From Paludibacteraceae bacterium (GTDB taxonomy: Bacteria > Bacteroidota > Bacteroidia > Bacteroidales > Paludibacteraceae), in NCBI GenBank assembly GCA_017479885.1, contig JAFVBR010000022.1:34555-98554 (forward strand): a stretch of 64,000 nucleotides of DNA, written 5' to 3'. Positions within the stretch are counted from its first letter, which is position 1; every line of letters starts with the position of its first letter. The translations under genes and the position numbers were made by a program. Below the pieces are notes generated by a model. That model searched no databases and was not told the DNA's origin. It saw only the letters and a list, made by a program, of their open reading frames with translations. Of this stretch, positions 35,536 through 35,934 are shown piece after piece.

Positions 35536-35670
35536 CTTTAGTTGTTTAGAGTTGTTTAGTGTTGTTTAGAATGGTTAACGATACTTGAACATTCGTCTGC
35601 AAAGGTACGCTTTTTTTCCGAATAATGAAATTTTTTCTACAAGACTATTGTGAGAAATAAAACTTTGTTG

Positions 35671-35678
35671 TAATTTTG
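35671..35678 (+). promoter_or_regulatory. -7 box TAATTTTG, probable promoter of the cysK leader
   Basis: TAnnTTTG match about 39 nt before the leader ATG. The neighbouring gene is divergent. Confidence 0.45.
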
Positions 35679-35716
35679 CAGTCGAAAATTAAAATAAACA
35701 AATATTTGCCATTCCT

Positions 35717-35764
35717 ATGTCAAGACAAACAGCATATATCTGTTGTTGTACCGGTCAGAATTGA
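35717..35764 (+). CDS. candidate leader peptide MSRQTAYICCCTGQN with three consecutive Cys codons
   Basis: ATG at 35717. TGT TGT TGT at 35741-35749. TGA at 35762-35764. Embedded in alternative helices (see finding). Confidence 0.55.
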   Translation: MSRQTAYICCCTGQN

Positions 35765-35831
35765 TTGGTATGACGCTCGTATATTATGTATAGGATAGTT
35801 TTAGCAAGAAACACCATAAACAAATAATTAA

Positions 35832-35870
35832 CGTCTGCCGGTCAGTTACAGATTGGCAGACGCTCTTTTT
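35832..35870 (+). terminator. intrinsic terminator (attenuator) in the cysK 5' leader
   Basis: 12-bp stem CGTCTGCCGGTC/GATTGGCAGACG (2 G.U), loop AGTTACA, then CTCTTTTT. No upstream plus-strand gene to terminate. Confidence 0.7.
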
Positions 35871-35934
35871 ATAAGACAAAGCCATTCGGCAACCTGCGGC
35901 AGGTATATATTAACTATTCAAACAATATAAAGTT

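Follow-up and report, generated by a model that had tools for sequence, protein, structure and literature searches.

A Candidate Cysteine-Codon Leader-Peptide Attenuator Upstream of cysK in Bacteroidales

The window, which is the entire 64,000-nucleotide stretch of Paludibacteraceae DNA that was analyzed, carries a gene for cysteine synthase A (O-acetylserine sulfhydrylase), cysK. The gene upstream of it is divergent, as an earlier note on this DNA had said, and corresponds to dusB on the minus strand. Between the two genes lie a promoter-like box, a short open reading frame with tandem Cys codons, and four segments that can form alternative hairpins (Table 1). The coordinates that the earlier note gave for this leader were checked by re-reading the sequence and are all correct, base for base, including those of the −7 box TAATTTTG (35671-78), the 15-codon ORF MSRQTAYICCCTGQN (35717-64) and its three TGT codons (35741-49). 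The fold of the leader has a z-score of −4.4 relative to dinucleotide shuffles. The CysK protein encoded downstream has no cysteine among its 313 residues, and the same is true of 109 of 120 close homologues, so that its synthesis would be possible under cysteine starvation. A covariance model search (model R1) found no second copy of the leader in the 64-kb window, and a survey of the window for other leader-like ORFs (short, with single-amino-acid runs, followed by a terminator) yielded nothing convincing besides the cysK leader.

Table 1. Genes and predicted regulatory features at the cysK locus, in window coordinates
Feature	Position	Strand	Basis or remark
dusB	34567-35535	minus	Divergent upstream neighbor; meets curated TIGR00737 cut-off
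Bacteroidota-type −7 box TAATTTTG	35671-35678	+	Motif match to TAnnTTTG; 38 nt upstream of uORF ATG
Leader ORF (uORF) MSRQTAYICCCTGQN plus TGA stop	35717-35764	+	ATG at 35717, stop TGA at 35762-64; 15 codons
Putative regulatory codons, three consecutive TGT (Cys)	35741-35749	+	Direct read
Segment 1 (GUUGUACCGGUCA), 5′ arm of hairpin 1:2	35745-35757	+	Minimum-free-energy fold
Segment 2 (UGAUUGGUAUGACG), 3′ arm of hairpin 1:2; alternatively 5′ strand of antiterminator	35762-35775	+	Folds; starts with uORF stop UGA
Variable spacer between segments 2 and 3; small local hairpins, not conserved	35776-35831	+	Unalignable among homologues
Segment 3 (CGUCUGCCGGUC), 5′ arm of terminator	35832-35846	+	Folds and terminator scan
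Segment 4 (GAUUGGCAGACG), 3′ arm of terminator	35851-35862	+	Fold and terminator scan
U-rich tract CTCTTTTT, completes intrinsic terminator	35863-35870	+	Direct read and terminator scan
cysK (cysteine synthase A, O-acetylserine sulfhydrylase)	35935-36876	+	TIGR01139, 428.9 bits versus cut-off of 350.95; presumed target gene

The first hairpin (1:2) pairs TACCGGTCA (35749-57) with TGATTGGTA (35762-70), as had been stated before, and RNAfold lengthens this helix to 13 bp (35745-57 with 35762-74). Segment 1 overlaps the last Cys codons, and a ribosome stalled there would therefore cover it. An intrinsic terminator (3:4) separates the leader ORF from the structural gene. It was originally drawn as CGTCTGCCGGTC (35832-43) paired with GATTGGCAGACG (35851-62) across the loop AGTTACA and followed by CTCTTTTT, and a terminator scan agrees with this assignment. 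The stem comprises 12 bp, and the hairpin and U tract finish 65 nt before cysK.

The third pairing (2:3) was modeled by masking every base as far as 13 nt beyond the last Cys codon and cutting the transcript before the 3′ arm of the terminator. Segment 2 is able to pair with TGCCGGTCA (35836-44), as the earlier note proposed. Masking the Cys codons in RNAfold lengthens the predicted helix, which then joins 35760-70 to 35836-46 and 35772-75 to 35832-35; this helix begins at 35760, two bases before the annotated segment 2. For the window, RNAduplex assigns −17.2 kcal/mol to the pairing of segments 2 and 3. The thermodynamic predictions are consistent with a mutually exclusive antiterminator that would be freed by a ribosome on the Cys codons.

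To compare this region with its relatives, leaders were collected from Bacteroidales genomes and metagenomes of related gut and rumen lineages, covering at least 23 relatives. The set holds 23 distinct homologous leaders (that of the window and 22 others), and every one lies directly upstream of cysK or cysK-cysE. Ten of the 23 came from a set of the 80 closest GTDB species cysK loci that had been chosen without using the leader. Model R1 also matches nine further sequences outside its training set, with E values from about 1e-14 to 2e-7.

The small ORF and its Cys run, whose retention in relatives had been set as a check by the earlier note, are kept throughout the set. An ATG-started ORF in frame with the Cys run is present in 23/23 leaders but in only 2/23 and 9/23 when the two remaining frames are considered, and each leader has two to five tandem Cys codons at one shared aligned position; the window has only three and L006 only two. 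In the alignment of the 23 leaders (A3), codon positions 1 and 2 of the run are invariant or nearly so, whereas the wobble columns 43, 46, and 49 are divided between T and C (13/9, 12/11, and 17/6, respectively). Variation that is confined to the wobble position, T versus C, suggests that the tandem Cys codons have been maintained by selection on the codons themselves. Outside the Cys run, the leader peptide is not conserved, and its length ranges from 15 to about 32 residues with varying end points. Extra Cys residues are seen near the C terminus of the peptide in several relatives.

The geometry of the leader is retained as well. Segment 1 starts 0-3 nt from the last Cys codon in the homologues, and the leader stop codon coincides with the 5′ edge of segment 2 in some leaders and follows this segment by 5-28 nt in the others. 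The segment 2 motif GAUUGGYAYGG is conserved across homologues. Its bases are translated in most relatives (as D-W-Y/L-G in type B relatives) yet fall after the stop codon in the window, L106, L113, and L119, which argues that segment 2 is conserved as RNA rather than as peptide.

Conservation of the alternative helices in relatives was another check named at the outset, and here too the homologues bear out the proposal. An intrinsic terminator is predicted in 23/23 leaders, and every homologue has a T-run after the hairpin. The terminator helix has changes on both sides in 11 of 15 pairs, with 81.3% of cells paired, and its observed covariation was reached by none of 500 shuffles. Hairpin 1:2 is predicted in 22/23 leaders, with 82.5% paired over the 23 sequences and both-side changes in 6 of 12 pairs. 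The register of this helix varies between subfamilies. A single register for all members was tried and fails in the L005-type subfamily, which has CCGA-UCGG plus an inner 3-4 bp instead.

The 2:3 antiterminator is predicted in 23/23 masked and truncated folds. Its duplex energies lie between −13 and −20 kcal/mol in all 23 leaders and are below the sequence's own shuffle mean in each case (mean z of −2.9). The register is specific, since 80.7% of cells are paired compared with at most 46.5% for a slid partner, in a test run on the alignment fitted to the other structure. Compensatory changes include GAUCGG with CCGGUC in L115 and GACUGG with CCAGUC in L013. Fixed-column covariation for this helix is moderate, and four of the observed measures were reached by 9 to 33 of 500 shuffles. 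Because the column signal is affected by a near-invariant core and by indels, which shift the 2:3 register in some members (e.g., L125), the per-sequence duplex and constrained-fold tests were added. The core of helices 1:2 and 2:3 shows only modest covariation because the core bases are highly conserved. Bases that have to pair with two alternative partners would be expected to be constrained in this way, although simple common descent fits the pattern too.

At the motif level, a box matching TAnnTTTG is present close to the start of the leader ORF, or before it, in 17/23 homologous leaders; in one of these, L123, the box lies 18 nt inside the alignment start. The same motif-level test found the box in 0/23 leaders between the terminator and cysK, a gap of 24-74 nt. 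By this test, cysK has no promoter of its own downstream from the terminator, and the gene must therefore be transcribed through it.

The element appears to be restricted to cysK. A scan of JGI metagenomes with the pattern TGTTGTNCCGN{5,14}ATTGGYWYGN{40,70}TGCCRRT returned 21 stretches, of which four, representing three distinct sequences, proved to be genuine leaders, each preceding cysK. The remaining 17 lack further Cys codons, an ORF, and a terminator and are regarded as chance matches. The scan contributed few sequences, but matches with a terminator are found only upstream of cysK. A search of the 64-kb window and 83 loci with R1 gave one weak extra match, in L009, where cysK is preceded by a degenerate remnant (23.6 bits, E of 0.025); the remaining weak matches are terminators read on the opposite strand. 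Neither the metagenome pattern scan nor the R1 search of the window and 83 loci located the element before genes other than cysK. Many close relatives have cysK without the leader (e.g., L001, L002, L007, L008, L111, L117, and L121), which indicates that the element is dispensable. The sequences themselves show which parts the element has and how they are arranged, that these parts are conserved and covary, and that they are associated exclusively with cysK.

The explanation that very probably accounts for these features is a ribosome-mediated transcription attenuator of the trp/his type, in which a leader peptide reads charged tRNA-Cys and controls cysK. Its steps of uORF translation, ribosome stalling, termination, and response to cysteine are ones that we infer from sequence comparison. 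Transcription would begin at the promoter with the −7 box, and a ribosome would translate the 15-codon leader ORF. If Cys-tRNA is plentiful, then the ribosome should pass the three UGU codons, reach the UGA codon at 35762-64, and cover segment 2. If no ribosome has loaded, segment 1 should pair with segment 2. Both cases would leave segment 3 free for segment 4, such that the terminator (35832-62 and the U tract after it) can fold and halt RNA polymerase about 65 nt before cysK. If Cys-tRNA is scarce, the ribosome would stall on the UGU run and cover segment 1. Segment 2 (35760-75) could then pair with the 5′ arm of the terminator (35832-46), and this pairing would block the terminator and allow transcription to proceed into cysK. 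The element thereby most likely senses cysteine supply via the ribosome and would raise cysK transcription in shortage.

Several points count against an attenuator of this kind. Among them are the modest covariation in the core of helices 1:2 and 2:3, the differing registers of helix 1:2, the relatives that lack the leader, and the small number of Cys codons in the window and in L006. In addition, Bacteroidota do not use Shine-Dalgarno-led initiation, and we know of no demonstration of translation-transcription coupling in this phylum. The reading given in the earlier note, a trp-type attenuator with Cys codons, is nevertheless strongly supported by the comparison with relatives; regulation by cysteine itself is what we infer from it.

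Other functions for these parts can be envisioned. A riboswitch, or a binding site for a protein or tRNA, could control the terminator, with the small ORF being incidental. Such an RNA-only switch would be in keeping with the sequence conservation of segments 2 and 3 (GAUUGGYAYGG and CUGCCAAUC) beyond pairing needs, and riboswitch expression platforms are typically hairpins with a terminator. However, the spacer between segments 2 and 3 is unalignable in both length and sequence, which speaks against a ligand-binding aptamer. An Rfam search of 35300-36200 (cmscan, E up to 10) returned no family match, including T-box, S-box, Bacteroid-trp, and the Trp, His, Leu, and Thr leaders, with noise far below gathering scores. 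A T-box-like arrangement was also considered, in which UGCC (segment 3) and UUGG (segment 2) would act as specifier and tRNA-end contact, and was rejected for want of a model match and of a conserved scaffold. A switch made of RNA alone would also leave unexplained both the T/C wobble pattern in the Cys run, whose variable columns fall outside the helices, and the in-frame ATG in every leader. On this evidence it is very improbable.

It is also conceivable that the ORF is an independent gene for a Cys-rich micro-protein with a metal-binding or redox function, equipped with its own terminator, and that cysK is expressed separately. Such a gene would have the order of parts seen here, namely a promoter, then a short ORF, then a strong terminator, and the extra Cys residues near the C terminus in several relatives would suit such a protein. 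The peptide, however, is unconserved beyond the Cys run and its ends vary, and the conserved nucleotides are translated only in some members. Moreover, the short gap before cysK lacks a promoter box in all 23 leaders, a conserved antiterminator would be pointless in a stand-alone gene, and the element occurs only before cysK. A separate micro-protein gene is likewise very improbable. Finally, the attenuator might not be specific for cysteine, and could instead be a constitutive partial terminator, a general sensor of translation stress, or a device that controls cysK translation as in mycobacteria. Any slowing of a ribosome on the uORF would favor the antiterminator, and the mycobacterial Cys sORFs that have been studied experimentally act on translation initiation (bioRxiv 10.1101/834739). 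We consider such a nonspecific or translational role quite improbable, because the sole strictly conserved codons are the tandem Cys codons, which are positioned precisely for a ribosome stalled on them to cover segment 1, because cysK and cysE are the only presumed target genes, and because the hairpin and U tract are conserved and covarying 24-74 nt before the cysK start codon, without overlapping it.

An attenuator that reads Cys codons would resemble trpL, hisL, leuL, thrL, pheL, and ilvL of Proteobacteria in placing, ahead of an amino-acid biosynthesis gene, a small ORF in which codons for the pathway's end product occur in tandem. It also shares with these classical attenuators the four segments with mutually exclusive 1:2, 2:3, and 3:4 pairings, a terminator before the biosynthetic gene, and a stop codon sited so that an unstalled ribosome would block segment 2. 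Unlike them, it concerns cysteine and cysK or cysK-cysE, in a Bacteroidales host without Shine-Dalgarno initiation here. There is no sequence relationship to the classical examples and no match to an Rfam leader family. The Bacteroid-trp motif, which is interpreted as a Trp-codon leader-peptide attenuator, has Trp codons and precedes trp genes, and it gave no match in the Rfam scan of the cysK leader region. This motif (RF01692) is a Bacteroidetes cis-regulatory leader located before an amino-acid biosynthesis operon (Weinberg et al. 2010; PMC2864571).

Cys-codon leaders are known from other bacteria. Mycobacteria carry polycysteine leaderless sORFs that form a "Cys ribulon" acting on translation, including Rv2334A before cysK1-cysE, and experiments have shown that cys genes are derepressed when ribosomes stall on such sORFs (Canestrari et al. 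2020; bioRxiv 10.1101/834739). Actinobacterial cys leaders without terminators have been predicted (Seliverstov et al. 2005; PMC1262725). These leaders and the one in the window share tandem Cys codons in a short upstream ORF and a cys-gene target, and the mycobacterial cysK-cysE operon has the same gene pair as the window's relatives. In the mycobacterial and Actinobacterial leaders, cysteine supply is sensed by ribosome pausing, which derepresses cysteine-metabolism genes. However, the mycobacterial sORFs are leaderless, whereas the promoter box in the window ends 38 nt before the ATG and the uORF generally begins about 30 nt or more past the box. No conserved terminator hairpins have been found in the mycobacterial and Actinobacterial cases, in contrast to the canonical terminator and antiterminator conserved in Bacteroidales. 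The window element falls outside the mycobacterial translational class, since its structure is a terminator that ends 65 nt before cysK and not a duplex over the cysK start.

Another relevant example, predicted computationally by Brewer et al. (2021; PMC8632094), is a ribosome-mediated attenuator before cysS in Rhodobacterales, the uORFC-8-2 motif. Like the cysK leader, it combines a uORF that contains consecutive Cys codons (UGC or UGU) with an intrinsic terminator. The uORFC-8-2 motif differs in that it belongs to alpha-proteobacteria, is unrelated in sequence, and controls a cysteinyl-tRNA synthetase rather than cysteine synthesis. It has two Cys codons, at positions 14-15, inside the first stem.

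The novelty that the earlier note claimed for a Cys-codon leader is therefore overstated. No description of a Bacteroidales cysK leader was found in open-access papers, but Cys-codon leaders as such are known from the cases above. The element appears to be real and is apparently undescribed, and its probable mechanism is textbook trp-type attenuation. That it both senses cysteine and is the first canonical terminator/antiterminator leader-peptide attenuator to be described for cysteine biosynthesis (cysK or cysK-cysE) is somewhat more probable than the contrary. If this is true, then the leaders make up an RNA family that is new to the literature and limited to some gut and rumen Bacteroidales, and it would follow that Bacteroidota couple uORF translation to termination tightly enough for trp-style control. 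Alongside the mycobacterial and Rhodobacterales cases, this element would represent a third independent origin of Cys-codon sensing by convergent evolution.

Cysteine and sulfide supply matter in the gut and rumen, and cysteine is a routine additive to growth media. To our knowledge, the regulation of cysteine biosynthesis and sulfur assimilation in Bacteroidales is poorly known. A Cys-sensing leader would offer a direct test system for ribosome-RNA polymerase coupling and for uORF translation without a Shine-Dalgarno sequence in Bacteroidota. ORFs of 45-100 nt of this kind deserve to be labeled leader peptides instead of hypothetical proteins. The cysK leader might also be used as a cysteine-responsive expression part for Bacteroidales. 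As a minor observation, one contig of the homologue set has a called gene of 35 residues nearby.

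The leader of cysK in the window (35640-35934) most probably acts by classical leader-peptide attenuation, the trp-type cysteine attenuator proposed in the earlier note. That reading holds up in an alignment of the upstream regions of relatives (A3), where the small open reading frame (uORF), the terminator (segments 3:4) and the alternative antiterminator (2:3) are conserved in all 23 leaders. We infer translation of the uORF, ribosome stalling, termination and a physiological response as follows. When Cys-tRNA is low, a ribosome would stall at the UGU run and mask segment 1, and segment 2 would then join segment 3. 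The 2:3 pairing would block the terminator and cysK would be transcribed. When cysteine is plentiful, or translation is absent, the terminator would form.

The coordinates first assigned to the element all match a re-reading of 35400-36200, and the flanking genes agree with what was said of them earlier. Hairpin 1:2 lies at its original position, with a pairing that is lengthened by RNAfold. The 196-nt window leader folds at -49.7 kcal/mol, versus -32.7 ± 3.9 kcal/mol in dinucleotide shuffles (z = -4.4), and its terminator hairpin is also recovered by a consensus terminator scan.

Parts of the leader and neighboring genes (window positions unless a relative's locus, L-number, is named)
Feature	Position	Strand	Remarks
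Promoter-type box TAATTTTG	35671-78		read from sequence
Leader ORF MSRQTAYICCCTGQN	ATG 35717, TGA stop 35762-64		read from sequence
Three TGT codons within leader ORF	35741-49		read from sequence
Hairpin 1:2	35745-57 with 35762-74		13 bp by RNAfold
Terminator, CGTCTGCCGGTC pairs GATTGGCAGACG	35832-62		loop AGTTACA, then CTCTTTTT
dusB, divergent	34567-35535	minus	
cysK	35935-36876		TIGR01139, 428.9 bits (cut-off 350.95)
gldE			next gene after cysK in the window
Serine O-acetyltransferase gene after cysK	L107:1633-2322		likewise L109, L115, L117, L121, L123, L124, L125

The nearest 80 cysK loci, drawn from genomes that each represent one GTDB species, were searched upstream, with a run of Cys codons in a short ORF as the sole assumption. 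In nine, an ATG-initiated ORF with a run of three to five Cys codons lies 100-220 nt upstream of cysK, and a tenth (L006) has two Cys codons. A loose RNA-only pattern that does not require Cys codons (AYTGGYWYG, 30-90 nt, TGCCRRT) matches the plus strand of exactly those Cys-ORF loci and none other among the 80. With a stricter pattern, a metagenome-wide scan yielded 21 stretches, four of which have extra Cys codons as well as an ORF and terminator; all four complete matches sit 5′ of cysK. A covariance model of the leader trained on 14 sequences (R1) gave no additional strong match in the 80 loci or the remainder of the window. It detects the leader in seven of 10 added contigs with CysK homologs (79-89% identity; E ∼1e-14 to 2e-7), and none of these newly matched sequences was in the training set. 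The final set comprises 23 distinct leaders. NCBI assigns a CysK protein identical to that of the window to a Paludibacteraceae MAG, and on four other public contigs encoding this protein the 400 nt upstream are identical to those of the window. The element is absent from many close relatives (for example L001, L002, L007, L008, L111, L117 and L121), indicating a lineage-restricted, dispensable add-on.

Both exclusive structures are preserved in A3. For the terminator, 81.3% of cells are paired, falling to 35-48% in slid registers; 11 of 15 pairs show changes on both sides, and its covariation is reached by none of 500 shuffles. Hairpin 1:2, whose register is shifted in one subfamily, is 82.5% paired with both-side changes in 6/12 pairs. 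The antiterminator columns provide an independent test because the alignment had been fitted to the other structure. Here 80.7% of cells are paired, versus 20-47% in slid registers, and both-side changes occur in seven of 12 pairs. The core is near-invariant, however, and the test exceeds its shuffle control only moderately. Segments 2 and 3 are presumably so conserved because each base must suit two partners. Tested sequence by sequence, every one of the 23 leaders has a 2:3 duplex energy between -13 and -20 kcal/mol, below its own shuffle mean (mean z -2.9), and clear compensatory pairs are GAUCGG/CCGGUC (L115), GACUGG/CCAGUC (L013) and GACCGA/UCGGUC (L125). Unconstrained folds contain the terminator in every leader and hairpin 1:2 in 22. 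When the RNA was masked up to 13 nt beyond the last Cys codon's first base and the transcript stopped short of the 3′ arm, the terminator 5′ arm paired with segment 2 in 23/23.

Two other readings would assign the element either to RNA or to protein alone. That it is an RNA-only switch would suit the strongly conserved GAUUGGYAYGG, which is translated as D-W-Y/L-G in most members and falls after the stop codon in the window, L106, L113 and L119, and therefore is conserved as RNA rather than protein. Such a switch is unlikely given the uORF: in all 23 leaders an upstream ATG shares the frame of the Cys run, with no intervening stop (2/23 and 9/23 for the other frames). Codon positions 1 and 2 of the aligned run read T and G in 19-23 of the 23, and the wobble columns, which lie outside the helices, split T/C as 13/9, 12/11 and 17/6, a signature of codon-level selection. 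The same reading frame could belong to a stand-alone gene for a Cys-rich micro-protein; this too is unlikely, and the peptide beyond the Cys run is not conserved.

It is also unlikely that attenuation is non-specific, or that it acts on translation. The link to cysK is exclusive, and segment 1 starts 0-3 nt from the last Cys codon. Window-type leaders (window, L106, L113, L119, L006) have their stop codon at or slightly before the 5′ edge of segment 2, and it is the UGA of UGAUUGG in all except L006; in the other type it lies 5-28 nt past segment 2, mostly 13 nt. With either placement a non-stalled ribosome would be expected to cover segment 2, as in trp. The terminator is 24-74 nt from the cysK ATG. 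A TAnnTTTG box occurs near the leader start in 17/23 and between terminator and ATG in 0/23, so cysK must be transcribed through the terminator. In many relatives a serine O-acetyltransferase gene overlaps the cysK end (NF041874 EpsC/CysE, 156.4 bits; cut-off 150), and the leader there thus governs a cysK-cysE operon; no cysE was found within the 64 kb of the window, where cysK stands alone. CysK of the window (35935-36873) has no Cys among 313 residues, as do 109 of 120 close homologs, so the enzyme can be made in cysteine starvation. This fits amino-acid-making enzymes economizing on their own product.

Some leaders appear altered. L123:528-662 and L124:219-352 are two alleles of one locus with an identical CysK protein (P0041). 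The leader peptide is MRNFAAYACCCCTCPAGWYGVLCA in L124 and MRNFAAYFCRCCISPAGWYGRSCA in L123, where the Cys run is broken and the minimum-free-energy fold is without hairpin 1:2; the L123 attenuator may be in decay or have been retuned. A weak R1 match 5′ of cysK (L009:1327-1487; 23.6 bits, E 0.025) has a terminator closely resembling that of L050 (CCCTGCCAATC...). An ATG-started Cys-run ORF was not found upstream of cysK in L009, which looks like a decayed leader remnant.

No Rfam family matches the leader. The earlier note knew of no Cys-codon leader for cysK. A description of the Bacteroidales leader was not found in the open-access literature searched, and it is apparently undescribed, but Cys-codon leaders are already known elsewhere, including before cysK1-cysE. 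They were predicted without terminators for actinobacterial cys operons (Seliverstov et al. 2005, PMC1262725). In Mycobacterium smegmatis, leaderless polycysteine sORFs relieve the repression of cysteine genes by exposing a ribosome-binding site, and Rv2334A precedes cysK1-cysE in M. tuberculosis (Canestrari et al. 2020). For cysS, a uORF with two Cys codons and a terminator was predicted in Rhodobacterales (Brewer et al. 2021, PMC8632094), and a two-Cys leader was reported in Deinococcus deserti (De Groot et al. 2014). Among Bacteroidetes, a leader-type trp motif is known (Bacteroid-trp, RF01692), and such motifs have been suggested for amino-acid operons of Flavobacterium psychrophilum. The element would work like trpL, and the amino acid that it would sense is the one read in mycobacteria; unlike either system, it joins a canonical terminator/antiterminator, Cys codons, a cysK or cysK-cysE target and a Bacteroidales host. 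The finding is real, and the element seems to form a family not yet described, of a well-understood kind whose mechanism is not new. It is a neat and useful addition for specialists, though no surprise. The phylum of the Bacteroidales is without Shine-Dalgarno sequences, and coupling of transcription to translation there could be tested well on this leader.

A tRNA-His(GTG) gene adjoins the leader on its upstream side at two loci (L003:1249-1403, L109:388-610). At the L003 locus the tRNA runs to position 1324 and the ATG of the leader follows at 1326; the sole promoter box is upstream of the tRNA. Leader and cysK may be co-transcribed with this tRNA, and its 3′-end processing could leave a near-leaderless uORF.

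Window-type leaders (window, L106, L119, L113) have in common, at an equivalent position, a motif near GCAGG-A/T-rich-ATATTAAC, located 3′ of the terminator in the cysK 5′ UTR (window 35905-35922). Its segment-4-like GGCAGG might be an extra partner for CUGCC of segment 3; alternatively, the region may just be a conserved translation-initiation region.

Upstream of dusB, three tandem 10-nt units (AGTTGTTTAG, AGTTGTTTAG, TGTTGTTTAG) occupy window 35540-35570, 5-35 nt before its start codon on the minus strand. Read on the dusB strand they are CUAAACAAC three times, in the dusB 5′ UTR or promoter region, and might serve to bind a regulator or, as an unstructured stretch, to aid translation initiation.
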